Assembly (NCBI GenBank): GCA_035649755.1
Contig: DASRIY010000377.1
Span: forward strand, 1-61,573
Source: Candidatus Methylomirabilota bacterium
Lineage (GTDB): Bacteria > Methylomirabilota > Methylomirabilia > Rokubacteriales > CSP1-6
Length of the DNA stretch: 61,573 nt
Reading direction: 5' to 3'
The notes under the pieces were generated by a model. That model ran no database searches. It was not told where the DNA came from and worked only from the letters and a program-made list of their open reading frames with translations. The position numbers were made by a program, and so were the translations under genes. Below, in pieces: positions 26,797 through 47,305 of this stretch. Every line of letters starts with the position of its first letter. The first letter of the stretch is position 1.

Positions 26797-27975
26797 GTGG
26801 ACGAACCGGCGCTGACCCTCATCGGGGGCCAGCCGCTCACGGCGGACGTCGCGCGGCGGCTCCCCCAGGGTGTGGTGGTCAGGTTGATGGTCGACCAGCC
26901 GGCCGTCCGGCCCGTCGACGTCGGCGACGTCGTCGAGGTCCTCCCCGGCGACGGCGCCCGCCGCGGCGACACCGTGCTCTTCGCCCACGACGGCCGGTGC
27001 GAGCTCGCACGCCTCATCCGGCGCGCCGGCTCCAGCGTCGACATCGCGGTGGGCCCCGAGGGGCGGCGCATCTCGCTTTCGGCCGGCGCCGTGCTCGGCG
27101 TCGCGAGCGCGCTCGAGCAGGGCGATCTGCTCTTCGATCTCTCGCGCGGGCGCTGGCGCGCGGCCGGCCGGATGGCGGCGGCCTTCCCGGCCGGGATGGG
27201 CCCGCTGCTGGGATTTATGGCGCGGCTCGAGCGACTGCGCCGGCCGTTCTTTCCTCCGCTCTTCATGGGCGGCGAGCAGCAGATTCTAGATCGGCTGACG
27301 GAGGCCTACGACGTGGAGGCGGAGATCATCGGCCGTGAGACCGCGCTCCTGCCGGAGGAGCAAGCCCTGCTTGAGCGTTACCTGAGGCGCGGCAGCCGAC
27401 TCCTCGATGTGGGCTGCGGCGCGGGCCGCGAGGCGGTGGGGTTCACGCGGGCCGGGCTCTCCGTAGTGGGGATCGACGTGGCGCCGGCCATGATCGACCG
27501 GGCCCGCGAGCGGGCGCAAGCCGCGGGGCTCGCGATCGAATTCGTGGTCGGTGAGCCCCTGACCTGGCCGGCGCCCGGCGCGCCGTTCGACGCGATCTAC
27601 TTCAGTCCCGGGATCTATTCGCACATCCCCGGTCGTGCCCGACGCGTGCGAACGCTGGCTCGGCTGCGCGGCCTTCTGGCCCGCGGCGGGCTGATCGTCC
27701 TCGGGCCGATCCTGTCGCCGCCGCTCCCGCGCCTCTCGCGCACCCGGCTGGTCGATGCGCTGCGCCGCGTCGGCCGGGCCGTCGGCGTCCGGCGGCTCGC
27801 CGAGCCGGGCGACCATTACTATCGCGGCCACGCGCTCGAGCGCACACCTGTGTCGTATCGCTACGTCCACCGTTTCCGTGACGGCGCTGAAGCCGAGGCC
27901 GAGCTGGCCGACGCGGGCCTGCGGGTGACCGATCGCCTCGACGAGACCTGCTGGATCGCGCGCCCGGCTATCTGA
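26797..27975 (+). CDS. Two-domain protein: N-terminal S24/LexA-like beta-barrel-like region plus class I SAM-dependent methyltransferase
   Basis: GTG 26797 with GGAAAGG upstream. The C-terminal half has motif I LLDVGCGAGREA and post-I VVGIDVAP. The N-terminal ~110 aa (GDVVEV...GDTVLFAHDGRCELARLIRRAG) resembles the peptidase encoded at 32301-32756 but lacks the GxSM motif. Confidence 0.7.
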   Translation: MDEPALTLIGGQPLTADVARRLPQGVVVRLMVDQPAVRPVDVGDVVEVLPGDGARRGDTVLFAHDGRCELARLIRRAGSSVDIAVGPEGRRISLSAGAVLGVASALEQGDLLFDLSRGRWRAAGRMAAAFPAGMGPLLGFMARLERLRRPFFPPLFMGGEQQILDRLTEAYDVEAEIIGRETALLPEEQALLERYLRRGSRLLDVGCGAGREAVGFTRAGLSVVGIDVAPAMIDRARERAQAAGLAIEFVVGEPLTWPAPGAPFDAIYFSPGIYSHIPGRARRVRTLARLRGLLARGGLIVLGPILSPPLPRLSRTRLVDALRRVGRAVGVRRLAEPGDHYYRGHALERTPVSYRYVHRFRDGAEAEAELADAGLRVTDRLDETCWIARPAI

Positions 27976-29110
27976 GCTGTCGCACCATTCGCCAGCAGAC
28001 GCGGACCGGATGCAATGCGCGATAGACGGGAACCTGCCACGGCGCATCGATCGAATAGTGAAGCCTGAGCCAGGTGGCCGACGGAAAGAAGGTCCACGCA
28101 AGCACGCGCAGCACGTCGACGCCGCGGTCCATCAGGAGCGTCTGCGCCGGATAGATGCGCGCCTCGCTGAGCGAGGCGCCGAGGCTCGGCGGCCATGACG
28201 AGTCGATGCAGGCAACGACGGCCGCCCGGCGCAGCCGGCCCAGCGTGATGCGGTCGGCGAGGCCGGCTGGCAGCGGGGTTCCGAACGAGGCGCTGACGAC
28301 GCCGAGCGTCCAGTCGAGGAGAGCGCCGATGCGCCAGCGCCGGGCTTCATCCACGATGCGGCTCCAGTCGAGCTCGCGAGCGTGCCCGCGAATCAGCGCG
28401 TCGATGTCCGCATACCAGAGGACACGGGCGAAGTCGGAGCCGAGCGTGAGGTGCAAGACCAGGTGCAGCAGCGTGTCCTCGGGGCAGAGCGCCAGGCTGC
28501 GCCCCTCGGCCAGAGCGAGCGGGCGCGCCCGGCTCCAGAGCCCCTCGTGGTCGACGCGCACGACGCCGTCGAAGCGGAGATAGCGCGCGATGTCCCAGTG
28601 AAGATCGAGGAGAACTCCGTCGCGGACCAGCTCGGCGAAGCACCGCGATTCCCCGAGGCGCTCGGCCTCAGGCCCAGGCGTCCGATAGCCGAGCCGGGCG
28701 AGCACCGCGATCGCGCGAAGTCGATCAGCGGGTCGCACCAGCAGGTCGATGTCGGCCATCGGCCGCAATCCCGGCTCGGGATAGACGGTGTGCGCGAGCA
28801 CGATGCCCTTGAGGGTGATGGTCTCGATCCCGGCCTCACGCAAGGCACTCGTGGCCTCACCCCAGCGCGCGGCGAGCGCGGCGCCGCGCGCCCAGAGGCT
28901 TTGCGCGCCGGCCGTCAGTCGTCGCTGCGCTTGGGATGGCAGATGGCGAAGCAGATCGAGCCGGCGGAGGTTCCAGTGAACGAGAGGGACAACGCCCTCG
29001 CCATGAGCGCGGTCGACGAGGAGGCTCCAGTCGACGGGACCGGCGGCGATCTCGGCAAGCCGGCGATCGGCGCTCGTGTCGGGCGCGGCCCGAGCGCCCA
29101 GGAGGAGCAC
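27968..29110 (-). CDS. Nucleotidyltransferase family protein (NTP_transf_5 / PF14907-like)
   Basis: Typical layout: ...IAAGPVDWSLLVDRAHGEGVVPLVHWNL...TLKGIVLAHTVYPEPGLRPMADIDLLVRP...LDLHWDI. Start set at GTG 29110 (AGGAGG 5 nt upstream). The track ORF extending to 29431 overlaps the precursor and the rSAM 3' end. Confidence 0.7.
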   Translation of the reverse strand: MLLLGARAAPDTSADRRLAEIAAGPVDWSLLVDRAHGEGVVPLVHWNLRRLDLLRHLPSQAQRRLTAGAQSLWARGAALAARWGEATSALREAGIETITLKGIVLAHTVYPEPGLRPMADIDLLVRPADRLRAIAVLARLGYRTPGPEAERLGESRCFAELVRDGVLLDLHWDIARYLRFDGVVRVDHEGLWSRARPLALAEGRSLALCPEDTLLHLVLHLTLGSDFARVLWYADIDALIRGHARELDWSRIVDEARRWRIGALLDWTLGVVSASFGTPLPAGLADRITLGRLRRAAVVACIDSSWPPSLGASLSEARIYPAQTLLMDRGVDVLRVLAWTFFPSATWLRLHYSIDAPWQVPVYRALHPVRVCWRMVRQLR

Positions 29111-29148: not shown

Positions 29149-29310
29149 CTAGGAGGTCGAGCTGGTTCGCGACCCTTTCCCCATCGAGGTACGCTGGGCG
29201 GCGCTGCAGGTGCCGGTGGTCGCGCGGCAGCAGGTGGTCGTGTCGGCCCCGAAGATGCTGCTGGGCTCCAGCGTCGGTTTCTCGTACGGGCGCTTCTCCT
29301 GGGTGGCCAC
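29149..29310 (-). CDS. Putative RiPP precursor peptide (53 aa)
   Basis: GTG 29310 lies 6 nt after an AAGGAG that sits in the last codons of the rSAM gene. GC3-rich codons throughout. Peptide: M/V-ATQEKRPYEKPTLEPSSIFGADTTTCCRATTGTCSAAQRTSMGKGSRTSSTS. It appears in the track only as the tail of a 387-aa spurious ORF (29149..30312). Confidence 0.6.
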   Translation of the reverse strand: MATQEKRPYEKPTLEPSSIFGADTTTCCRATTGTCSAAQRTSMGKGSRTSSTS

Positions 29311-29312
29311 CC

Positions 29313-30446
29313 TCAACTCCTTTCGGCGGTGCGAATCTGGTAGAGGCGTCGATTGGCGCCGGCGACGGTCCTCGCCCGCTCGTGGCAGCGCTTCCAGTCG
29401 CCGTCGGCGCGGTCGAGCAGGTTGTCGCCATGACAGCGGTTGCAGAAGCCGACCAGCTCGCACGACGCGCATTCCGGCAGATCGGCGTAGCGCTGGACCG
29501 AGAGCAAATCGCGAATCGCGGGCGGCGGCGAGGTCCAGAGCTCGCGGAACGGTGTCTGGCGGACGTTGCCGATCGGCACCCGGAACGCGATGCACGGGTA
29601 GACGTTGCCGTACGGGTCGATGCAGCAGCCGTTGGTCGCCGGGCCGCAGGTCCCGCGCTGGAGGGCGACGTCCTCGGGCCGGCCTTCCTGCGGATCGAGC
29701 TGCTCGCTCCATCGGGAATCGCGCATGTACTGGAACAGCTCGTCGGCGTCGAGCTGGTACTCCTGGGGTACGTGGCCGTCGCGGGGCACGGTACCGTCGA
29801 TTCGCGGGCTCACCTCGCAGCTGTAGGTGTGGGTGAAGACGCCGAGGTCCTTGCCCAGCCGGTCGAGCGCGGCGAGCCCGGCGAGGTTCGGCTTCATCAC
29901 GACCGTCTTGAGGTAGACCCGCACGCCGTGGCGCTGCAGGCGCTCGATCGCCGCCATGAGACGCCGGAAGGATCCCGGCACCCGCGTGATCGCGTCGTGC
30001 ACCTCCGGGTCCGCCGAGAAGATCGAGAGCTCCACCGTCAACGGCTCGAGCGCGGCCAGGCGCTCCACCTTCGCCTCGGTGAGGCCGATGCCGTTGGTGA
30101 AGACGCGGTAGGCAAAGCCGCGGCGACGCGCGTGCTCGGCGATGTCGAAGAAATCGGGCCGCACCATGACCTCGCCGCCCGACAGCGTCAGGTAGAGCCC
30201 GCCCATGTCGGCCAGCTCGTCGAGCACATGACGGATCTCGTCGAGCGTCAGCTCGCGGCGGCGCACCTCCCGCTCGCGCCCGTGCTCGACGACGCAGTAG
30301 CAGTGCACGCACTGCTCGTTGCAGCGATAGGTCAGCTCGAGGTGGACGTTGAGCGGCGTGCGGTTGCGGTCCGCCTTGGCGCTGATGAGCGCCAGGAGCG
30401 ACTGGTCGCCGAGGCCGGCGTTCTGGGCGCAGCCTTCGAAGATCAT
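29313..30446 (-). CDS. Radical SAM enzyme with C-terminal SPASM domain (peptide maturase type)
   Basis: CNEQCVHC (CX3CX2C) near the N-terminus. SPASM cysteines: CGPATNGCCIDPYGNVYPC ... CASCELVGFCNRC. ATG 30446 overlaps the PqqD stop (ATGA). Confidence 0.9.
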   Translation of the reverse strand: MIFEGCAQNAGLGDQSLLALISAKADRNRTPLNVHLELTYRCNEQCVHCYCVVEHGREREVRRRELTLDEIRHVLDELADMGGLYLTLSGGEVMVRPDFFDIAEHARRRGFAYRVFTNGIGLTEAKVERLAALEPLTVELSIFSADPEVHDAITRVPGSFRRLMAAIERLQRHGVRVYLKTVVMKPNLAGLAALDRLGKDLGVFTHTYSCEVSPRIDGTVPRDGHVPQEYQLDADELFQYMRDSRWSEQLDPQEGRPEDVALQRGTCGPATNGCCIDPYGNVYPCIAFRVPIGNVRQTPFRELWTSPPPAIRDLLSVQRYADLPECASCELVGFCNRCHGDNLLDRADGDWKRCHERARTVAGANRRLYQIRTAERS

Positions 30447-30754
30447 CGGCTCTCTCCCTTGCGCCGGCGCTCGACGGAGACCAGCTTCGCGTCGGCGAGC
30501 CGCTCGATGAACTCCACCGTATCGGCGCGGATGGTCGCCTCGGGCGCCGCGAACTCGCCCGCCACCACGCCCACGATGTCGTCTACGCTGCGCGCGCCGT
30601 CGCACAGCTCCCAGATCCGCGCGCCGACGCTGTTGAGAGGATAGAGCAATCCGCTCTTGACGTCCACGACGAGCGCCTCCGTGTCGAGCGTCCGCCACGG
30701 CATCGACCGGCGACGCGGAAACGCCTCAGCCCAGTCCATCTCAGTCCAGTCCAT
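30443..30754 (-). CDS. PqqD-family protein (RiPP recognition element)
   Basis: ~100 aa with ...VVDVKSGLLYPLNSVGARIWELCDGARSVDDIVGVVAGEFAAPEATIRADTVEFIERLADAKLV, the classic PqqD/RRE pattern. Alternative ATG at 30739. Confidence 0.8.
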   Translation of the reverse strand: MDWTEMDWAEAFPRRRSMPWRTLDTEALVVDVKSGLLYPLNSVGARIWELCDGARSVDDIVGVVAGEFAAPEATIRADTVEFIERLADAKLVSVERRRKGESR

Positions 30755-31613
30755 CGAGGTACTCCCAGAGCTCGGCGCGCGGGGCGAAGGCCAGCTCGTA
30801 CGCCGGCGTCCGCTCGGCCAGCGCCGCGAGCGCGCCCAGGAGCTCTGCGGCGACGCGCGGGTCGCGCTTGGGCAGCATGACCTCCGGGAAGGCGCGGGCG
30901 ACCGTCTCGGCCGGCGAGAGACGCCGATGCGAGAAGCGCTCGGCCTTGCGGAGAAAGCAGAGACCTCCCAGCGGCGCGCGCCGGTTGGCGCGGGCCATCC
31001 CGGGTCCGCCCGAGCCGTAGAACGGCGTGGCGTGCGCACTGTAGGCGCGCGGCCCCGGCCGCAGCGCGATCGTCTCGTCGTTGAGGACCGGGCGAATGCC
31101 GGCCAGCTGCGCGATGGTGGTTTTGCCGCTCCCGGACGGTCCCGAGAACACCCAGGCGCGCCCGCGCACCACAACGGCCGAGGCGTGGAGCAGGACTCCG
31201 CCGGCCCGCGCGAGGAGGAACCCGCACAGCATGCGAAACAGGTCGGGGTTGAGCGCCGGGCCCGGGCCCACCCTGAAGCGCACGCGGCGGCCGGCCAGGT
31301 CGCCGGTGGCGCGCGAGGGATGGCTGGCGAGCGAGAAGTGGCCGTTACACCACGTCGCGAGCGGACGGGCCACGCGTCCCCGGCGGTAGCGCTCGGTTGC
31401 GGCCACCGCGACGGTGACCGTCGGCACCCGCCGCGAGACGAACGGCGCGAAGCGCTCGGCGACCCACGCCCGATCGGGCGCGGCGAGGCCCGTCACGCGA
31501 AAGACGAATCCGGCGACCTCGATGCAAGGCGCGCCCTCAGCCAACGACCGTAATCCATAGGCGCGGCTCGGCCGGCGGGGCCCCAGCCCCGCGACGGCCT
31601 GCAGCGCGCACAT
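30741..31613 (-). CDS. HPr kinase/phosphorylase-related kinase (HprK C-terminal-like, P-loop present)
   Basis: LLHASAVVVRGRAWVFSGPSGSGKTTIA...LNDETIAL is HprK-like. Alternative TTG start at 31544 would give an 8-nt overlap with the upstream gene instead of 77 nt. Confidence 0.7.
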   Translation of the reverse strand: MCALQAVAGLGPRRPSRAYGLRSLAEGAPCIEVAGFVFRVTGLAAPDRAWVAERFAPFVSRRVPTVTVAVAATERYRRGRVARPLATWCNGHFSLASHPSRATGDLAGRRVRFRVGPGPALNPDLFRMLCGFLLARAGGVLLHASAVVVRGRAWVFSGPSGSGKTTIAQLAGIRPVLNDETIALRPGPRAYSAHATPFYGSGGPGMARANRRAPLGGLCFLRKAERFSHRRLSPAETVARAFPEVMLPKRDPRVAAELLGALAALAERTPAYELAFAPRAELWEYLDGLD

Positions 31614-32316
31614 CCGCAGCTCTAGCCGCTCGCCGTGCTGAGCGCCGCGGCCGGCCTGCGGGCGCCGAGACGATCAGGCTTGCCAGCTCCAGGGTGCGTA
31701 CGACCGCTTCGCGGCGGCGGTCGGCCTGCCACACGGCCGGAAGCATGGTGGCGAGGGCACGCGCGCCCCCGGCCGCCGTCTTGAACGAGACGTCGCCGGA
31801 AGCGATCAGGGCGCTGCGAGCCCGGCCCCGAGCGGGCAACGGCGTAGCGGGATCGACGAACGGCGTGAGACGCATGGTCGTCCCGTCTGATCGCGGCGTG
31901 GCCGCGACGTAACCCGCTGGAGCGCGAAGCAACAGCGTGTCGCGCTCCAGAAGCCACAGCGCCGAGAGCGTGCGCATCATGTTGGCCACGCCGAAGCCGC
32001 CGGCAATCCGCACCGCCGCACGGCCGCGACGCACGTCGACCGTCGCGCGGTAGTAGCCGGTCGTCACCAGGAGGCTCCGGCCGTGTCGGCGCACGCGCGG
32101 GGTATCGTCGACGGTCTCCTCGTCCGCCGGCGCGCCGGCGCGACGCCGGAAATTGTCGTCGTAGGTGATCGAGACCGTCACGTCAGGACGCCGAGTGGTC
32201 AGGAATTCGGGGCGATCTCGGGCCCAGAACCCGGGCTTGGGATTACGGGACACGAGGCGGAACGCGATGCCTGCGATGTCGACGGTGTCGGCGTAGGAGC
32301 TCAGGCGCGCCGCCAT
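31537..32316 (-). CDS. HprK-related paralogue lacking a Walker A motif (pseudokinase-like)
   Basis: Its N-terminus MAARLSSYADTVDIAGIAFRLVS parallels EGAPCIEVAGFVFRVTG of the downstream kinase. The equivalent of the P-loop region reads LLLRAPAGYVAATPRSDG. ATG 32316 overlaps the peptidase gene by 16 nt. Confidence 0.5.
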   Translation of the reverse strand: MAARLSSYADTVDIAGIAFRLVSRNPKPGFWARDRPEFLTTRRPDVTVSITYDDNFRRRAGAPADEETVDDTPRVRRHGRSLLVTTGYYRATVDVRRGRAAVRIAGGFGVANMMRTLSALWLLERDTLLLRAPAGYVAATPRSDGTTMRLTPFVDPATPLPARGRARSALIASGDVSFKTAAGGARALATMLPAVWQADRRREAVVRTLELASLIVSAPAGRPRRSARRAARAADVRAAGRRGAGAPPAEPRLWITVVG

Positions 32317-32756
32317 GCGCGCCGGCGTGCCGATGCCAGCGCCGCGCCCCCGAGCGAAAGCGCCGCCTTGACGGCGGCCTGGGCGCGACGCGCCGGTCCC
32401 GTCAGGTCGACCACCGCGCCATCGCGCTCGAGGGCCGTCACGACCCCGAGGACCTGAGCGGGCCGCACGTGCTCCGGCCCCGCGCCGCGGTGATCGGCTC
32501 GGGTCATCAGGAGGGCGCCCCGGCGGCCGATCATGCGATGACAGACGACAGTCCCCTCGCACTCGTACGCGAGCAGGTCGCCGAAGCGGACGCGAGCGGC
32601 AGGGGCCACGAGGATCCGCGAGCCGCTCGCCAGCAGCGGCCGCATGCTCCTGCCGCGCACCGGAAGCCAGGTCGGCTCGCCGGAGTCGATCCGCTCGCGG
32701 ACGACCTCGGTGACCAGCGGGCGCCACACGGCAGAGACGAGCGCCATCAGCGTCAT
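32301..32756 (-). CDS. S26/S24-family serine peptidase-like protein (Sec11/SipW-like Ser-His signature)
   Basis: 151 aa; VRGRSMRPLL (GxSMxP nucleophile motif) and VVCHRMIGRRG (resembles the IVHRV motif of ER/archaeal-type signal peptidases). First gene of the operon. Confidence 0.55.
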   Translation of the reverse strand: MTLMALVSAVWRPLVTEVVRERIDSGEPTWLPVRGRSMRPLLASGSRILVAPAARVRFGDLLAYECEGTVVCHRMIGRRGALLMTRADHRGAGPEHVRPAQVLGVVTALERDGAVVDLTGPARRAQAAVKAALSLGGAALASARRRAWRRA

Positions 32757-32783
32757 CCTACTATCTATAGCTACGCATCCGCT
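32757..32783. promoter_or_regulatory. 27-bp AT-rich divergent intergenic region with a palindromic -10-like core
   Basis: CCTACTATCTATAGCTACGCATCCGCT. On the minus strand TATAGA lies 7 nt upstream of the peptidase ATG (leaderless geometry). On the plus strand TATAGC lies 12 nt upstream of the GGT ATG. Confidence 0.35.
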
Positions 32784-34412
32784 ATGATCGCCCGCATGAC
32801 TGTCCCCACCCGCTGGGCGGAGTGCCGGGCCAGCGGCGGACTCGTCGCCGCGCCGCACGCGCTGGCCGCCGAGGCCGGCGCGGCGATCCTCAGGCGCGGC
32901 GGCAATGCTGTCGATGCCGCGATCGCCGCCGGTGCCACGATCGCGGTCGTCTACCCGCACATGAACGGCGTGGGCGGCGACAGCTTCTGGCTGATCTACG
33001 ACGGCCCGAACCGGGCCCTCCGCGGGCTGAACGCGGCGGGCCGCGCGGCGGCGACGGTCGACCTGGAGACCTATCGGGCGCGCTTCGGCACCGCCATCCC
33101 GCCGCGCGGCGGCGCGGCCGCGCTGACCGTCCCCGGCGTCGTCTCCGGCTGGTGGGAAGCTCATGCCCTGAGCCGCGACACCCTGGGCTCGCGGATCGGC
33201 TGGAGCGCGCTTCTCGAGGACGCGATCACCCGCGCCCGTGACGGCTTTCCACCCTCGCCCGGGCAGCGCCGCGAGACAGCCGACGCCGACGATCTCTTCG
33301 GCGCCACCGCGCCGGCCGATCTGCGCCCGGCGCTCTGGCGCATCTTCGATCCCGCGCTGCTGGCGCGCGAGCGTTTCGTGCAGGCCGACCTCGGCGCGAC
33401 GCTCGAGGAAATCGCGCGGGGCGGCGTCGAGTCGTTCTACCGCGGCGCGCTCGGCAGGCGAATCGCGGTGGCCGCCGCCGCCGCCGGCAGCCCGCTGACT
33501 TTCGAGGATCTGGCCGCGCACCGGGCGGAATGGGTGGAGCCCTTGCGCGTTCGCTACCGGAACGGGGAGGCGGCGAGCCTGCCCCCGCCGACGCAGGGCT
33601 TCGCCGCCCTGGCGATCCTGTCACTGCTCGAGGGCTTCGACATCGGCGCGCTTCCCGAGGCTGACTACGTTCATCTGGTGGTCGAGGCGACGAAGGTTGC
33701 CTTCGAGGACCGCGACCGCTATCTGACCGACCCGACGTTCGAGCGGGTCCCGGTCGAGCATTGCCTGGACCCGGCTCATCTGGCCGAGGGCCGCCGCCGC
33801 ATCTCTCGGCGCGCGGCGCAGCAAGCGCGCGGCGCGGCGCTCGAGGGCGACACGATCGCCATCGTGGCGGCGGACGCGGCCGGCAACGCGGTGTCGGTCA
33901 TCCAGAGCCTCTACTGGGAATTCGGTTCCGGCGTGATCGCCGGCGACACCGGGATCCTCCTGCAGAATCGCGGCGCGTTCTTCTCGCTCGATCCGGCGCA
34001 TCCCAACCGGCTGGCACCGCGCAAGCAGACCGCGCACACGCTGATCCCGTCGATGTACCTGGTGAACGGCTGCCCGCATCTGGTTTACGGCACGATGGGC
34101 GGCGAGGGTCAGCCGCAGACGCAGGCGACGCTGGTCACGCGCAGCCTCGACCGCGGGCTCGGGCCACAGGCGGCCGTCGAGGCGCCGCGCTGGCTCTACG
34201 GGCGCACCTGGGGCGATGAGACGCGGGCGCTCAGGCTCGAGTCGCGCTTCGACAGCGACGTGCGCGAGTCGCTCCGCGCGCGCGGCCACGACGTCGAGAT
34301 CGTCGAGGACTGGAGCGATCTCATGGGCCACGCCCAGCTCATCCGCATCGATCCGGACGGCCTCCGCGGCGGCTCCGACCCGCGGGCCGACGGAGCCGCG
34401 CTCGGCTCTTGA
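32784..34412 (+). CDS. ggt: Gamma-glutamyltransferase family protein
   Basis: GGNAVDAAIAAGATIAVVYPHMNGVGGDSFWLIYD N-terminal motif; Thr nucleophile region GDTIAIVAADAAGNAVSVIQS; GTMGGEGQPQ. Confidence 0.9.
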   Translation: MIARMTVPTRWAECRASGGLVAAPHALAAEAGAAILRRGGNAVDAAIAAGATIAVVYPHMNGVGGDSFWLIYDGPNRALRGLNAAGRAAATVDLETYRARFGTAIPPRGGAAALTVPGVVSGWWEAHALSRDTLGSRIGWSALLEDAITRARDGFPPSPGQRRETADADDLFGATAPADLRPALWRIFDPALLARERFVQADLGATLEEIARGGVESFYRGALGRRIAVAAAAAGSPLTFEDLAAHRAEWVEPLRVRYRNGEAASLPPPTQGFAALAILSLLEGFDIGALPEADYVHLVVEATKVAFEDRDRYLTDPTFERVPVEHCLDPAHLAEGRRRISRRAAQQARGAALEGDTIAIVAADAAGNAVSVIQSLYWEFGSGVIAGDTGILLQNRGAFFSLDPAHPNRLAPRKQTAHTLIPSMYLVNGCPHLVYGTMGGEGQPQTQATLVTRSLDRGLGPQAAVEAPRWLYGRTWGDETRALRLESRFDSDVRESLRARGHDVEIVEDWSDLMGHAQLIRIDPDGLRGGSDPRADGAALGS

Positions 34413-39583: not shown

Positions 39584-40234
39584 TCAGGTGATGTCGATCG
39601 GCTCGTCGACGAATACCGTGTACGTGCGCGGCCGCCCGCGCTCGGCGTCGGCCGGATTCACGTACATGATCGACGTCCGGCCGCGGATCTCGCGCGGGAG
39701 AATCGCCACGCGGATGAAGCTCGTGTCCTCGGCCTTCGACGCGACGGCCAGAACGGGCTCGCGCCCGCTCTCGAACCACGCGCCGCCTGGCGTGACGCGC
39801 CGAGCGGGCGCGTCGCCCACGGTCACCTCGAGCGCGCCGGCGATGAGACAGCGGATGCCGCCACCCCGGTGGCGGTGCGGGAGCGCCACCCCGCCCAGCG
39901 CGAAGTCGACCCGGTCGGCGCGTATCAGGTATTCCGCGCGCGGGTCGAGGTCGATCGGATGCTCGAGGAGCACCTTCGCGTCGCCGCCCGCCGGCGCCGT
40001 GCCCCGGATCAGCTCGTAGCGCAGCAGGGCCGCGCCGGCGTCCCCCGCGGCCACTTCGCATGCGCCTGCGCCGTGCCAGGCCTGCCCCTCGACAACTCGC
40101 GCGTCGCCCGCGCCGCTCGCCACCGAGATGGCGCTGCGTCGCGCGTAGAGGACGCGGTTGAGCGCGGGAAGCCGCAGGCGACCGGCCGCGGGCAGTCGGT
40201 CCTCGCACAGGCGCAGTGTGTAGTCTCCGGACAT
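39584..40234 (-). CDS. Cupin-domain protein
   Basis: 216 aa with a beta-rich double-barrel-like pattern; ALPHRHRGGGIRCLIAGALEV resembles a cupin motif. Lies 18 nt upstream of crcB on the same strand. Confidence 0.45.
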   Translation of the reverse strand: MSGDYTLRLCEDRLPAAGRLRLPALNRVLYARRSAISVASGAGDARVVEGQAWHGAGACEVAAGDAGAALLRYELIRGTAPAGGDAKVLLEHPIDLDPRAEYLIRADRVDFALGGVALPHRHRGGGIRCLIAGALEVTVGDAPARRVTPGGAWFESGREPVLAVASKAEDTSFIRVAILPREIRGRTSIMYVNPADAERGRPRTYTVFVDEPIDIT

Positions 40235-40284
40235 GGCCGGGCGTCATTGTACGCCGCGCGGGCTCCGTGATACGTTGCGGAACG

Positions 40285-42246
40285 ATGAGAGCCGTCGCAG
40301 TCGGGCTCCTGGTTGCGAGCATGTGGCTCGCCGCCCCTCGCAGCATCGCCGCGTATTCGATCCAGGAATCGATCCTCCGCGTCAAACCTGCGGCCGTACT
40401 GATCACCACCGAGGTGCGCGCGGACGTGACGCTCAACTGCGGGCGCGGGCCGGTCGCCGTGACCCCGCCGCCGTTCGTCGAGACGGGCACGGGCTGGTTC
40501 GTGGACGGACGCGGGTTCATCATCACCAACGCGCACGTGGTCGATCCGGCGTACCGGCTGCCGGCCTGGGTCACGCACGAGCTCAAGAAGAAGGCGATCG
40601 ACGAGGCGTGCGTGGTTCCGGTGCTGACCGCCCGCGGCATCATGCGCGGGCAGCGGCCGGACCTCGAGGAGGAGATCCGCCGGGCCGCCAGTACGCAGGC
40701 GCTCGCCACCGCCAAGGTCGAGGCCCAGCCCCAGATCACCGCCATGCTGTCCAACGGCACGAAGCTCCGGGCGGACGTGAAGAAGTTCAGCCCGCTGCTC
40801 CTGCTCGACAACGCCGGCAAGCCCCTGCCCGATTCCGGCCGCGACCTGGCGCTCCTGCGCGTGGCCGACGGCGTCTATCCCGCCATCGGCCTGTCGCGGC
40901 GCGATCCCCAGATCGGCGATCCGGTGCACATCCTGGGTTTCCCGGGCGTCGTGCTCTCGCACGAGCTCCTCAACCAGAGCTCCACGCTTGACGCCTCGGC
41001 CACGAACGGCACCGTGTCCGGCATCAAGTTCGACGCGATCGGGCAAGAGCTCGTGCAGACCGACGCGTCGGCCTCGCACGGCAACAGCGGCGGACCGGGT
41101 GTCAACAACGACGCCGAGCTCGTGGGCGTGATGGTGGCGGTGACGCTCTCGCCGTCGGGCGGCTCGATCGTGCAGGGGTTCAACTTCCTGATCCCGGCCA
41201 AGGACGTCGCCAAGTTCCTGGACGGCACGGAGGTTACGAAGCCCGGCGACAGCAAGTTCAATCCGGTGTGGGCGGCCGGCATCGAGCTCTTCCTCGGCGG
41301 CCGCTACAAGGCGGCCGTCGCCAAGCTCGAAGACGCGAACAAGCTGGTGCCGAACCTGGTCGACGTCAAGCGCACCCTCGACGAGGCCAACCGGATGGTG
41401 AAGAATCCGCCGCCCCGGCCCTTCCCGTGGGCGTGGGCGACCCTCGGCGTGACCGTGCTGAGCGGCGGCGCCTACGGCGGCATGTGGGGCAAGCGCTGGT
41501 GGAAGAACCGCTTCCGGGTCACGCCGACGCAGGTGATCACGTTCATCGAGCGGGGGCTCAACCCGGCGCTGCTCGACGTGCGCACGAAGGCCGAGTTCGA
41601 GACGAGCCCCTTGAAGCTGCCGGGCTCGATGCGCTACGAGCCCGAGACGGCCGAGCAGACGCCGCTCAACCTCGAGCCCGCGCAGCTCATCGTCGCCTAT
41701 TGCACGAGCCCGGAGGAGCAGCAGAGCGCCCGGATCGTGCATCTCCTTCGTCAGCGCGGCTTCAAGAACGTGCGCATCCTCAAGGGCGGTCTCGGCGGCT
41801 GGACCAACGCGCGCCTGCCGGTCGAGGCGAAGTCGGCCCTGCCGTCGGTCGGGCTCGAGCTCTACAAGAACCTCTCGCTCGGCGACATCGAGCGGCGGCG
41901 CTTCAAGCCGGGCGACTACATCTTCAAGGAAGGCGACGACCCGCGCGACGAGGCGTTCGTCATCCATTCGGGCACGGTCGAGATTCGCCGGAACCTCAAC
42001 GGCGCCGAGCGGGTGGTGAACCGGATCGGCGAGGGCGAGCCGCTCGGGGAGATGGCGCTCTTTCGCGGGGTCGCGCGGCGCTCGGCAGCGGCGGTGGCGG
42101 CCGACGACGTCGAGCTGCTCGTCATCAAGGAGGAGCGGCTCGAGTGGCTCGTCCTGAACCGACCGCGGCTCGCGCTCGAGCTGCTCAAGCGCCTGTCGAA
42201 CCTCGTCGTCGCGACCGATCAGGAGCGGGCGCAGCCGGTCAGATGA
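40285..42246 (+). CDS. Multidomain protein: periplasmic trypsin-like serine protease, TM helix, rhodanese domain, cyclic-nucleotide-binding domain
   Basis: Signal peptide; GTGWFVDGRGFIITNAHVV (His), DLALLRV (Asp), ASHGNSGGPG (Ser); TM WAWATLGVTVLSGGAYGGMWG; rhodanese LIVAYCTSPEE...LKGGLGGW; cNMP-binding FKPGDYIFKEGD...GEMALFRGVARRSAAAVA. Confidence 0.8.
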   Translation: MRAVAVGLLVASMWLAAPRSIAAYSIQESILRVKPAAVLITTEVRADVTLNCGRGPVAVTPPPFVETGTGWFVDGRGFIITNAHVVDPAYRLPAWVTHELKKKAIDEACVVPVLTARGIMRGQRPDLEEEIRRAASTQALATAKVEAQPQITAMLSNGTKLRADVKKFSPLLLLDNAGKPLPDSGRDLALLRVADGVYPAIGLSRRDPQIGDPVHILGFPGVVLSHELLNQSSTLDASATNGTVSGIKFDAIGQELVQTDASASHGNSGGPGVNNDAELVGVMVAVTLSPSGGSIVQGFNFLIPAKDVAKFLDGTEVTKPGDSKFNPVWAAGIELFLGGRYKAAVAKLEDANKLVPNLVDVKRTLDEANRMVKNPPPRPFPWAWATLGVTVLSGGAYGGMWGKRWWKNRFRVTPTQVITFIERGLNPALLDVRTKAEFETSPLKLPGSMRYEPETAEQTPLNLEPAQLIVAYCTSPEEQQSARIVHLLRQRGFKNVRILKGGLGGWTNARLPVEAKSALPSVGLELYKNLSLGDIERRRFKPGDYIFKEGDDPRDEAFVIHSGTVEIRRNLNGAERVVNRIGEGEPLGEMALFRGVARRSAAAVAADDVELLVIKEERLEWLVLNRPRLALELLKRLSNLVVATDQERAQPVR

Positions 42247-44920: not shown

Positions 44921-45121
44921 TCAGTACCCGCCGCCCGAGGACGTCTCGCAGCGCGTTCCGCGCCACGTTCCGCCCGAGCGCTCGCAATCCTTCTGGGCAG
45001 TCGCCCCCGAGCCCGGCGCCGAGGCCACGGATTCCGCGCACCCGGCGACGCTCGCCATCAAGAGCAGGGATCCGATGATCGTTCGCAGCGTGGTTGCATC
45101 GCGCCTCACTTCAATTCTCAT
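44921..45121 (-). CDS. Small lipoprotein (66 aa)
   Basis: Lipobox LLLMASVAGC; its ATG overlaps the stop of the CHASE2 cyclase gene (ATGA at 45118-45121). Confidence 0.4.
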   Translation of the reverse strand: MRIEVRRDATTLRTIIGSLLLMASVAGCAESVASAPGSGATAQKDCERSGGTWRGTRCETSSGGGY

Positions 45122-47256
45122 GGTTCTCGCCCTCCCGACCGCGCCACGTAGTCGGCGACGGCTGCTGCCGACTCGGCGTCCAGCGTCGCGAACTGGACCC
45201 CGGCCGCGTCGCCCCGCCTTGAAACAATCGTGGCGTCCGCCAGGATCCGGCGCGGCAGGTCACCGCCCTCGACGCGAACCTGGACCTTGGTCCCGGTCTC
45301 CCAGTCCGGGGGCACGCCGGTCAGCCCCAGTCCGCCCTCGCTGATGTCCACGGCGCGCGCGCGACAGACGCGCCCGTCGCCCGCGGTGAGCGTCGCGGCC
45401 GCGGCGAGCGCCGCCCGCTGATGCTTGCGCACGCTGGCCGGCACGACGCCGTAGATCTTCACCGGCTGCGTCTTGCCCTTGACCGTGACGTCGCCGAGCT
45501 CGCGCGTGGGGAACCTTCCCTTCACCAGCTCGTAGGTGTACTCGCTGATGATGATCGGTGCGCCGTAGTCCTTCGTGGCCGACTCGAGCCGCGAGCCGAG
45601 ATTCACGTGGTCGCCGAGCGCGGTGTACTCGAAGCGCTGGCGGGAGCCGAGAGTGCCCACCAGCATCTCGCCGGTGTTGATGCCCACGCCGATACGAATG
45701 TGGGCGCCGAGACGCGCCTGCCACTTCGCAGAGACCACGAGCGCCCGCTCCTGGAACTCGAGGCCGGTGCGGATCGCGTTCAGCGCGTGCTCGGGATCGT
45801 CGAAGGGCGCGTTGTAGAGCGCCATGATGCCGTCGCCCATGTACTTGTCGACCGAGCCCCGGTGCTTGAACACGATCTGCGTCATCTCGGTCAGGTACTC
45901 GCCGAGCAGCTCCTCGACCTGCTCTGGCTGCAGACGCTCTGAGATCGACGTGAAGCCGCGGATGTCGGAGAAGAGCACCGTGGCCACGCGGCGGCGCGGG
46001 CCGAGTCTCTCGACGTCCCGAGTCCGCACCAGCGCGCGGAGCACGTCGGGCGAGAAGAACGGCGAGAGCCGCCGCTTGTAGAGCTGGGCTGACACGAAGT
46101 TCTCGACGACGGTCGCGCCGTAGCCCAGGAGCAGCCCGACCGTGCACCCGACCCCGCGCAGCCAGAAGTCGCCGTACCGGAAGCCGACGTAGGCGGCCAG
46201 GCCGCTCACGACCAGGACGGCGAGCGTGATCACCAGCGCGCGGAATGCCTGCAGGCGCACCACCAGGAGCGATCCGACCAGCGCGAAGACGATGGCGAGC
46301 GCGGTCGACACCGCCCTCGGTACGGCTCGAATCGAGTCACCCCTGATGAACGTCTCGAGCGCGTTGGCGTGGATCTCGACGCCCGGCATGGTGCCGGCGC
46401 CAGCGAACGCCGTCGGGAAGACGTCGTGCTGGACTTCGCTCGTCGCGCCGATCAGCACGATCTTGCCGCGGAACAGCCCCTTGATCTCCTTGAAGTCGTC
46501 CGTCACCACGCGGTAGTACGGCACCCACTGAAACGTCCGGGGCCTGCCGCGGAAGTTGATGAGGACATCCCGCGCGTCGGGAAGCGGCTTCACCGGCAGG
46601 CCGGCCTTCTGCGCCTGCTGGTGCAGCCGCGCGTCGAGGGTGAGCCACCATTCGTAACCCTTCTGGGGGTCGGGCACCGCGATCCGAACGGGGACGCGCC
46701 GGACGTGGCCATCCGGATCGGGAATCAGGTTGATCGGGGCAACGGCCGCGGCGCCTTTTCTGAGAACTGGTAGGGGCAGATTCGACACCTCGCGCTCGAC
46801 GCCGGTCACCCTGCCACCCTGAGCGATCAGCGGCTGATCGTCCTGCGCGCCGGCGGCCACGAGCACGACGTTGCCGGCGCGCGCGATCGCGGCGCCGAGG
46901 GCCTCGTCGTCCTTGGGCCCGAACATCGAGGGGCTATCGAAGATGACGTCGACCCCGATGGCGATCGGCCCGTCGGCGCTGATCCGGTCGATGAGCTCGC
47001 CGTGCAAAGCGCGCGGGAATGGCCACGGGAGGTTGAGCTCCTGGAAGGTCGACTCGTCGATGCTGACGATGACGATGGGCGCGGTCGGCGGGCGGGCACC
47101 GCGCAGCTCGAAGAGCTGGTCGAGCCACAGATGCTCCCACCGCTCGAAGGAGCCGGTGAGCGCCAGCGCCGCGACACAGAGGGCCGCGCCGATACCGCAG
47201 AGGAGCCGGCGAGTGTGGCCCAGCAGTCGGGCCCCGATGCGCCCCATCTCCGCCAC
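45118..47256 (-). CDS. CHASE2 sensor, class III adenylate/guanylate cyclase, C-terminal PilZ domain
   Basis: CHASE2 region (LWLDQLFELRG...IVIVSIDESTF...GVDVIFDSPS) followed by 3 TM helices; cyclase core ATVLFSDIRGFTSISE...GDGIMALYNAP...GINTGEMLVGTLGS; PilZ motifs RKHQR and DISEGG. Confidence 0.85.
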   Translation of the reverse strand: MAEMGRIGARLLGHTRRLLCGIGAALCVAALALTGSFERWEHLWLDQLFELRGARPPTAPIVIVSIDESTFQELNLPWPFPRALHGELIDRISADGPIAIGVDVIFDSPSMFGPKDDEALGAAIARAGNVVLVAAGAQDDQPLIAQGGRVTGVEREVSNLPLPVLRKGAAAVAPINLIPDPDGHVRRVPVRIAVPDPQKGYEWWLTLDARLHQQAQKAGLPVKPLPDARDVLINFRGRPRTFQWVPYYRVVTDDFKEIKGLFRGKIVLIGATSEVQHDVFPTAFAGAGTMPGVEIHANALETFIRGDSIRAVPRAVSTALAIVFALVGSLLVVRLQAFRALVITLAVLVVSGLAAYVGFRYGDFWLRGVGCTVGLLLGYGATVVENFVSAQLYKRRLSPFFSPDVLRALVRTRDVERLGPRRRVATVLFSDIRGFTSISERLQPEQVEELLGEYLTEMTQIVFKHRGSVDKYMGDGIMALYNAPFDDPEHALNAIRTGLEFQERALVVSAKWQARLGAHIRIGVGINTGEMLVGTLGSRQRFEYTALGDHVNLGSRLESATKDYGAPIIISEYTYELVKGRFPTRELGDVTVKGKTQPVKIYGVVPASVRKHQRAALAAAATLTAGDGRVCRARAVDISEGGLGLTGVPPDWETGTKVQVRVEGGDLPRRILADATIVSRRGDAAGVQFATLDAESAAAVADYVARSGGREP

Positions 47257-47305
47257 TGTATGCTAGGCCCGTCGCCCTAGCTAATGCGATTCGCACCGTG
47301 CGCGC

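Follow-up and report, generated by a model that had tools for sequence, protein, structure and literature searches.

Sequence conservation marks a 53-codon open reading frame (ORF) on the minus strand of contig DASRIY010000377.1 (Candidatus Methylomirabilota bacterium) as a genuine, strongly conserved precursor-peptide gene. We analysed this ORF within the whole 61,573-nt stretch of DNA in which it lies, hereafter called the window. In our judgement the ORF probably encodes the precursor of a ribosomally made peptide with post-translational modifications (RiPP) that is the substrate of the operon spanning 32756-27968, in which a radical S-adenosylmethionine (rSAM)/SPASM enzyme would form thioethers, a kinase would phosphorylate Ser53 and a peptidase would remove the leader. 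The gene and its start signal are located as follows.

29149..29310, minus strand: precursor peptide gene, 53 aa, from GTG 29310 to TAG 29151-29149
29317..29322, minus strand: Shine-Dalgarno sequence AAGGAG, 6 nt upstream of GTG 29310

The precursor gene and its family

Translation of the minus-strand ORF 29310..29149 yields V/MATQEKRPYEKPTLEPSSIFGADTTTCCRATTGTCSAAQRTSMGKGSRTSSTS*, where V stands for the GTG start, and contains Y9, P12, L14, T24, cysteines 27, 28 and 35 and a C-terminal Ser. An earlier note based on the letters of the window had proposed this 53-aa ORF as an uncalled precursor gene whose GTG lies 6 nt past AAGGAG and 2 nt past the stop codon of the upstream rSAM gene. Direct inspection of the sequence bore out these placements (the rSAM stop TGA occupies 29315-29313). 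The word "uncalled" holds at most for the window's own gene track, whereas the gene calls of an independent ENA assembly (locus L081) include an identical 53-aa peptide; there a 377-aa Radical_SAM/SPASM gene, the identical precursor and a 380-aa NTP_transf_5 gene follow one another.

The note's remark that third codon positions are nearly all G or C is likewise correct. The GC content of the ORF at codon positions 1/2/3 is 0.44/0.70/0.93, and the precursor frame has the highest third-position GC over 29300-29180. Differences among seven close orthologues are distributed over codon positions 1/2/3 as 117/96/388. In these seven loci, the differing codon pairs are 134 synonymous versus 18 non-synonymous in leader codons 6-26, and 152 versus 110 in the core. 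Six close loci have an ATG start with a conserved GAGGAG upstream. A search of protein collections recovered 56 clusters of close homologues (51-66 aa, nearly all 53 aa, 65-94% identity), labelled "hypothetical protein" by NCBI and JGI and found in metagenome-assembled genomes (MAGs) assigned to Binatia or Rokuibacteriota. Their alignment is invariant at K6, R7, P8, Y9, K11, P12, L14, S17, F20, G21, T24, R29, K45 and S53, and C27, C28 and C35 are each at least 90% conserved. Pfam and NCBIfam scans returned no family for the window peptide or for an acidobacterial homologue, and no description of the precursor family was found in the literature searched. One protein (P0056) combines the usual leader and tail with a scrambled, Cys-free middle (NHRAAARPLERAAQRSAR), and looks like the outcome of a double frameshift or of faulty assembly.

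Long spurious ORFs are common in DNA of 70% GC, and the frame of the downstream nucleotidyltransferase (NTase) gene is open up to 29431. These facts could favour a chance ORF or a 5′ extension of the NTase gene, an outcome that the earlier note had itself named as fatal to its proposal. However, the excess of third-position and synonymous changes, the thousands of homologues and the independent gene calls argue against a chance ORF. The 5′ extension is ruled out by the NTase gene's own ribosome-binding site (AGGAGG at 29121-29116) and GTG start (29110), 38 nt past the precursor stop, in agreement with the independent 380-aa call in L081. We give practically no weight to either possibility. The identity of the ORF as a precursor peptide, as the note had suggested, is sustained by the homologues, the synonymous excess and the called identical copy. 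Searching the six-frame translation of the window (113,589 residues) for the pattern Y..P.[LFIV].{5}F.{6,8}C gave a single match and no second precursor copy.

The wider family was examined in 80 related loci, all fetched through their rSAM relatives. In eight close loci, from Rokubacteria, Methylomirabilia and "Binatia" MAGs, the precursor ORF directly follows the rSAM gene. The ~70 distant loci (~36% rSAM identity) belong mostly to Acidobacteriaceae or Sulfotelmatobacter, and most of them encode a homologous precursor ~1.7 kb upstream, in the order precursor, peptidase, kinase, PqqD, rSAM. In L012 and L014, which form a second Rokubacteria type, the genes are arranged as kinase, PqqD, precursor, rSAM, NTase. 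In total, a precursor was detected in 63 of the 80 related loci, with kinase, PqqD and rSAM alongside in nearly all. Each of the 64 precursors (63 loci and the window) has a terminal Ser and a Phe 11 residues past the Tyr, and in 61 of them the first core Cys lies 18 residues past the Tyr.

A two-clade profile revealed a large family without a Pfam or NCBIfam model, comprising no fewer than 1,872 clusters at the 90% identity level (470 at 50%) and hosted mostly by Acidobacteriota and Rokubacteria, two poorly cultured soil phyla. None of the 1,872 clusters is named or has a Pfam domain. Residue statistics were taken from the 150 best representatives. Tyr and Pro are present in 150/150, the Phe is also invariant, and the Tyr-to-Cys distance is 18 in 150/150; 146/150 end in Ser and 146/150 have exactly two core Cys. 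The spacing from Cys1 to Cys2 is 10 in 107/150, and that from the last Cys to the C-terminus is 7 in 118/150. Lys occupies position −3 in 81% and Ser position −1 in 97%, and the Tyr+5 position is F, V or L. The family consensus reads KKPYxKPxFRxExVF[E/V]TxALxCGK-x7-C-xxNRKxS, with the leader motif K-x-x-Y-x-x-P-x-[L/F]-x5-F. The window clade is a divergent branch with CC in place of CG and a longer Ser/Thr-rich tail.

These figures agree with the earlier note on the YxxPxL leader spacing, on the Gly missing at −8 in the window peptide, on the importance of the core Cys (two of the three are near-invariant across the family) and on the C-terminal Ser. The proposal that T24 corresponds to the lasso −2 Thr does not survive: this Thr is clade-specific, the position (Y+15) is Ala in 99% of the representatives, and there is no lasso B2 peptidase to read it. 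A 154-aa protein (P0319) carries a PqqD domain in frame with a complete precursor (...RRPYEKPSFRYERAFETMALSCGKATAGQGQCQTNRKVS), and is either a natural fusion of recognition element and precursor or a gene-calling read-through.

The operon and its enzymes

The precursor gene belongs to a seven-gene minus-strand operon, 32756-27968, in the order peptidase, 259-aa protein, kinase, PqqD, rSAM/SPASM, precursor, NTP_transf_5. The genes overlap by a few bases or sit a few bases apart, with the exception of the 38-nt gap before the NTP_transf_5 gene. The other genes of the operon and its convergent neighbour are listed below.

32301..32756, minus strand: signal-peptidase-I/S24-like serine peptidase, 151 aa, motifs GRSMRP, CHR and RAD
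31537..32316, minus strand: 259-aa protein, confined to the Rokubacteria clade, conserved in L001-L007
30741..31544, minus strand: P-loop kinase of HprK/PEPCK fold, 267 aa, with H143, GPSGSGKT and D179
30443..30754, minus strand: discrete PqqD-type RiPP recognition protein (RiPP recognition element, RRE), 103 aa, Pfam PqqD 4e-18
29313..30446, minus strand: rSAM/SPASM enzyme, 377 aa, Pfam Radical_SAM 1e-25 and SPASM 3e-9
27968..29110, minus strand: NTP_transf_5 nucleotidyltransferase, 380 aa, Pfam PF14907 4e-49
26797..27975, plus strand (convergent): S-adenosylmethionine-dependent methyltransferase fusion gene, Pfam Methyltransf_25 3e-17

As read from the related loci, the conserved cassette is precursor, signal peptidase I (SPase-I)-like peptidase, HprK/PEPCK-fold kinase, discrete PqqD and rSAM/SPASM enzyme; the peptidase gene was recovered from 65 loci in addition to the window. 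This five-gene cassette is small and amenable to heterologous expression.

The rSAM enzyme has a CNEQCVHC motif and a full Cys-rich SPASM region, is devoid of an N-terminal recognition domain, and starts at an ATG that overlaps the PqqD stop (ATGA). Its best matches in the PDB are SkfB (7e-14) and PqqE (6e-12). No NCBIfam model reaches its cut-off for this enzyme: StsB scores 98 bits against a cut-off of 625 and AlbA 77 against 850, and the orthologue from L032 scores 77 bits with SkfB against 300. Its ScmE and GeoRSP matches rank under those to AhbD, MftC, NirJ and PqqE.

The closest recognition-protein matches of the PqqD protein are of the lasso type and of the type found with the linear polyphosphorylated peptides (LPP), with TbiB1 best (5e-8), followed by PbaB1 (1e-4) and LppB (0.02). 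BLASTP aligns it with a Bacillota LppB-family protein (1e-10), placing N41, D78 and F82 opposite LppB N33, D70 and F74. The lasso, ScmD and GeoRSP PqqD models of NCBIfam also match it, below cut-off. The earlier note's pairing of a lasso-type leader with a PqqD-like RRE is thus supported by the TbiB1 match and by the retention of N41, D78 and F82, which are suggestive of the same mode of leader binding.

The kinase likely starts at TTG 31544, which gives 267 aa, the size of most homologues; an in-frame ATG also occurs at 31613, and residues 1-23 of the resulting long form have a predicted local distance difference test score (pLDDT) below 50 in AlphaFold2. The AlphaFold2 model of the kinase has a mean pLDDT of 90 and matches ATP-PEPCK (9e-9) and HPr kinase/phosphatase (2e-4 to 2e-3) in Foldseek; these two families share one P-loop fold. 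Searched against PDB sequences, the kinase-family profile found P-loop and PEPCK matches and no HprK, the latter being seen only by fold search. Invariant residues of the family are H143, G158-x-S-G-x-G-K-T166 and D179. Its nearest named NCBIfam models, ScmC (SynChlorMet), HprK_rel_A and HprK_rel_B, all match below cut-off, and nearly all homologues (P0325-P0424; 267 aa) carry a precomputed Pfam PF27840.1 assignment.

The peptidase gene, the first of the operon, is buried within longer spurious GC-rich ORFs (32301..33521 and, on the opposite strand, 32169..34412), and was overlooked in the earlier note. Its product matches a hidden Markov model (HMM) built from the related-locus peptidases (E = 7e-22) and Pfam Peptidase_S24 (6e-6), and BLASTP aligns it with a Bacillota LppS-family peptidase (5e-5) with the Ser, His and Asp residues in register. 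We consider it the likely candidate for the leader peptidase. A divergent gene, gamma-glutamyltransferase-like as named from its sequence, begins ~30 nt upstream of it.

The 259-aa protein, whose ATG (32316) overlaps the 3′ end of the peptidase gene, has no match in Pfam or NCBIfam scans. Its first ~55 residues resemble the N-terminus of the kinase (BLASTP 8e-5) and it has no P-loop; it is possibly a pseudokinase or a scaffold. The NTP_transf_5 gene follows the precursor in L001-L006, L008 and L081, lies further downstream in L007 and adjoins the rSAM gene in L009, L012 and L014.

The methyltransferase fusion gene is conserved beside the cluster in L001-L007. The N-terminal domain of its product is weakly similar to the peptidase beta-barrel (10 bits with the peptidase HMM). 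The SM motif is absent from this domain and an Ala is aligned with the catalytic His (caHRvv versus elARLI), which makes it probably inactive; possibly it is a defunct peptidase domain recruited for docking on the leader or on the recognition protein. In L007 the fusion gene is co-directional and sits between the precursor and the NTase gene. In L081 (2617-4394, plus strand) the NTase gene is followed by an ORF of over 641 aa in the same orientation, where the window has the convergent methyltransferase gene, which implies that the downstream edge of the cluster varies.

A glycosyltransferase of the MJ1255/VC2487 family (Glyco_trans_1_3) is encoded downstream of the rSAM gene in 8 loci (L019, L025, L032, L054, L071, L075, L077 and L078), immediately after it in 7 of them. 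In loci without the NTase, this enzyme may serve as a substitute for tailoring. The glycosyltransferase gene downstream of the L032 rSAM gene was initially considered a cluster member and was dropped because of its presence in only 8 loci. Elsewhere in the window, two genes unrelated to the cluster were observed: 40162-42246 (plus strand) encodes a 694-aa protein with trypsin-like peptidase, rhodanese and cyclic-nucleotide-binding domains, and, nearby, 45118-47262 (minus strand) a CHASE2-adenylate/guanylate cyclase-PilZ protein, both being unusual signalling architectures.

Proposed maturation of the precursor

Approximately residues 1-22 of the precursor (KRPYEKPTLEPSSIFGA) would form the leader and DTTTCCRATTGTCSAAQRTSMGKGSRTSSTS the predicted core, a boundary placed by analogy with LPP (PMC13381572). 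The PqqD protein would bind the YxxPxL segment (Y9, P12, L14), as lasso B1 proteins and LppB do, and present the peptide to the other enzymes. Lacking its own recognition domain, the rSAM/SPASM enzyme would receive the peptide from PqqD and act on the core, most likely forming thioethers from C27 and C35 to peptide carbons. Thioether chemistry is suggested by the two Cys being the only invariant core side chains besides the terminal Ser, and by SkfB being the best solved relative of the enzyme. The kinase would phosphorylate Ser53, like the lasso-associated HprK homologues; this target is proposed because the family has no equivalent of the LPP Ser3 and conserves a hydroxyl only at the terminal Ser. 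NTP_transf_5 and the methyltransferase would add further decorations in this clade. The peptidase would cut after F20-G21-A22, the counterpart of the F-E-T of LPP, and release DTTTCCRATTGTCSAAQRTSMGKGSRTSSTS. The earlier note had drawn the boundary after T25, which the homology with LPP leads us to replace with this predicted site.

Several observations weigh against this pathway. Thioether formation and Ser phosphorylation are deduced from sequence and not from chemistry, and the two Cys may be joined by no more than a disulfide. The rSAM enzyme scores about equally with the AhbD, MftC, NirJ, PqqE and sactisynthase models, none of which comes close to its cut-off, and such near-equal scores do not single out a reaction type. 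The LPP kinase targets core Ser3 and not the C-terminus; the equivalent residue in the present family is Leu (Thr in the window), so that phosphorylation of Ser53 is argued by elimination. The cleavage site in the window is FGA and not FET, and the hhalign comparison of the family precursors with three LPP precursors is marginal (E = 0.05 over 14 columns). Moreover, most acidobacterial loci lack the NTP transferase, and no exporter was found in the window among the operon genes and 17 other large ORFs.

The main rival is C-terminal chemistry of the MftC kind: the rSAM/SPASM enzyme would work on the end of the peptide, for example by oxidative decarboxylation or cross-linking of the N-R-K-x-S tail, the Cys would serve in a disulfide or in metal binding, and the kinase would act elsewhere. 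Consistent with this possibility, the MftC model is among the best NCBIfam matches of the enzyme (125-132 bits), the pairing of a discrete PqqD with an rSAM enzyme is the arrangement of MftB/MftC and PqqD/PqqE, and the C-terminal tail is highly conserved, as the frequencies of Lys at −3 and Ser at −1 indicate. On the contrary, the MftC match falls short of even half the model's cut-off (265), unrelated SPASM enzymes score equally, the best solved relative is the thioether-forming SkfB, the Cys residues are conserved as strongly as the terminal Ser, and a C-terminal Ser fits the known specificity of lasso HprK homologues. We therefore regard this alternative as unlikely and retain thioether formation on the core with phosphorylation of Ser53.

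A broader proposal, which we advance tentatively and place somewhat short of an even chance, is that the family represents a RiPP class that has so far escaped recognition and that abounds in the Acidobacteriota and Rokubacteria of soil. In this class a lasso/LPP module of leader, recognition protein and SPase-like leader peptidase would be joined to an rSAM/SPASM enzyme and an HprK-fold kinase, and the products would be small peptides, Cys-crosslinked, (poly)phosphorylated on the C-terminal Ser and, in the window clade, NTase-decorated and methylated. We know of no natural product for which this set of modifications has been described. Such a product might work within the cell, serving as a cofactor or a signal, rather than as a secreted antibiotic, given that no exporter was found in the window and that the core scaffold is unusually conserved.

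Comparison with known systems

The gene content first recalls the orphan SynChlorMet (ScmC/D/E/F), GeoRSP and HprK-related kinase A/B cassettes, which also associate an HprK-like protein, a PqqD-family protein and an rSAM/SPASM enzyme and are described by the NCBIfam models TIGR04248-04251, TIGR04302-04303, TIGR04352 and TIGR04355 (Haft). However, both the window proteins and the L032 orthologues score far under the cut-offs (ScmC 25-50 bits versus 125, GeoRSP rSAM 71-115 versus 400); the present family is separate and unmodelled. We know of no product of the SynChlorMet and GeoRSP cassettes, for which the precursors described here offer a candidate substrate type. The biosynthesis of PQQ and mycofactocin likewise relies on a PqqD/MftB-type chaperone, a PqqE/MftC-type rSAM enzyme and a small conserved precursor, and the PqqE and MftC models match below cut-off, but the kinase and peptidase have no counterpart there.

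With the sactipeptides (SKF, subtilosin) and ranthipeptides (SCIFF, freyrasin) the system shares a full-SPASM rSAM enzyme, with SkfB as the best solved match, and a Cys-containing core. It differs from them in having a separate lasso-type PqqD rather than an N-terminal fusion, a core with only two Cys, and a kinase and an SPase-like leader peptidase as obligatory partners. All sactisynthase and ranthipeptide models of NCBIfam stay well short of their cut-offs with the rSAM enzyme of the window and with its L032 orthologue.

In phosphorylated lasso peptide clusters, the precursor receives a phosphate on its C-terminal Ser from an HprK homologue, which is largely indifferent to the remaining sequence, and a nucleotidyltransferase then attaches a hexose to that phosphate, as in pseudomycoidin (PMC8498205). 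The present cluster resembles those of paeninodin and pseudomycoidin in its YxxPxL leader with a discrete B1/PqqD protein, its HprK homologue and its nucleotidyltransferase. The YxxPxL spacing, the lasso-like recognition protein and the paeninodin-type combination of HprK-like kinase and NTP_transf_5 could even suggest a true lasso peptide precursor. Yet neither an Asn-synthetase-like cyclase nor a transglutaminase-like B2 cysteine peptidase was found among the operon genes and 17 other large ORFs of the window (nor was an ATP-binding cassette exporter), their place being taken by the rSAM/SPASM enzyme and the serine peptidase. Furthermore, the window peptide has no Asp or Glu after D23 and thus none at core positions 7-9, so that the macrolactam acceptor is missing, and the family at large does not keep the −2 Thr. 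A lasso product is rejected on gene content and core sequence, as the earlier note had also argued, and we consider its probability vanishingly small. RRE-Finder listed ~300 discrete "lasso" recognition proteins beside rSAM enzymes and treated them as false positives (PMC7470986); the present family may account for part of them.

Among known systems, the LPP clusters (Popov et al., Nat Commun 2026), with the genes LppA, LppK, LppB, LppS, LppD and LppN, come closest (PMC13381572). These clusters, described as restricted to Bacillota, encode a SipW-like peptidase LppS, a discrete LppB, the HprK kinase LppK, the NTP transferase LppN and an MsbA-like pump (PMC13381572). LPP leaders follow YxxPxVLxHQxIxFET|xxS; LppB D70 holds leader Y-16, N33 fixes the Pro kink and Phe74 lies in the cleft; LppS cuts after T-1 only when LppB presents the leader, with F-3, E-2 and T-1 all mattering; and LppK polyphosphorylates core Ser3 (PMC13381572). 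The likeness extends to most of these elements. The window PqqD protein retains the Asn and Asp with which LPP and lasso recognition proteins engage a YxxP leader, as well as the cleft Phe, and the window encodes a putative SPase-I-like (SipW-type) serine peptidase, an HprK-like kinase and an NTP transferase. The leaders resemble each other in K-x-Y-x-x-P-x-[V/I/F]-x-x-[H/E]-Q...F-E-T: the present family has F-[E/V]-T, literally FET in L012, L014 and many representatives, and the window clade FGA. The F-[E/V]-T nevertheless sits 2 residues nearer the Tyr than in LPP, and a search of the precursor profile against PDB chains, aimed at the LppA leader of 9x8z, gave chance matches only.

Given this likeness, the cluster could be an ordinary LPP member with a linear polyphosphorylated product, in which the rSAM enzyme is merely a clade-specific accessory. 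The window contains the LPP-type peptidase, recognition protein, kinase and NTP transferase, and its leader resembles that of LPP. The differences nonetheless make this reading distinctly improbable. An rSAM/SPASM gene is present in every related locus examined (these having been selected through it), and the peptidase, kinase and PqqD genes adjoin it in nearly all 80, whereas the NTP transferase gene does not and appears optional; radical SAM and SPASM are not mentioned in the LPP paper or its supplements (PMC13381572). LPP cores are long, Gly/Asn/Pro-rich and Cys-free with a phosphorylated Ser3, whereas the present core is short, with two fixed Cys, a C-terminal Ser and Leu at position 3 family-wide (Thr in the window). 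The hosts, too, are different, being Rokubacteria/Methylomirabilota and Acidobacteriota, and no MsbA-like exporter turned up among the operon genes and 17 other large ORFs of the window. Supplementary Data 1 of the LPP paper lists SPase-like/RRE pairs from Acidobacteriota, Chloroflexota, Myxococcota and candidate phyla, left unanalysed there as network cluster #3 (PMC13381572); these pairs may be further relatives of the present family.

The earlier note had described a lasso-style leader feeding an rSAM maturase as an unusual hybrid. This description is largely superseded, since the published LPP relative accounts for the lasso-type leader as well as for the kinase and the nucleotidyltransferase, and leaves only the rSAM/SPASM enzyme and the Cys core to be explained. 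LPP-type leader handling, with its YxxP leader, discrete recognition protein and SPase-like peptidase, would thus not be confined to Bacillota, and its machinery would here be combined with radical SAM chemistry. Taken together, these comparisons best place this widespread system as a relative of LPP and of the phosphorylated lasso peptides, set apart from both by its rSAM/SPASM enzyme and its Cys-containing core.

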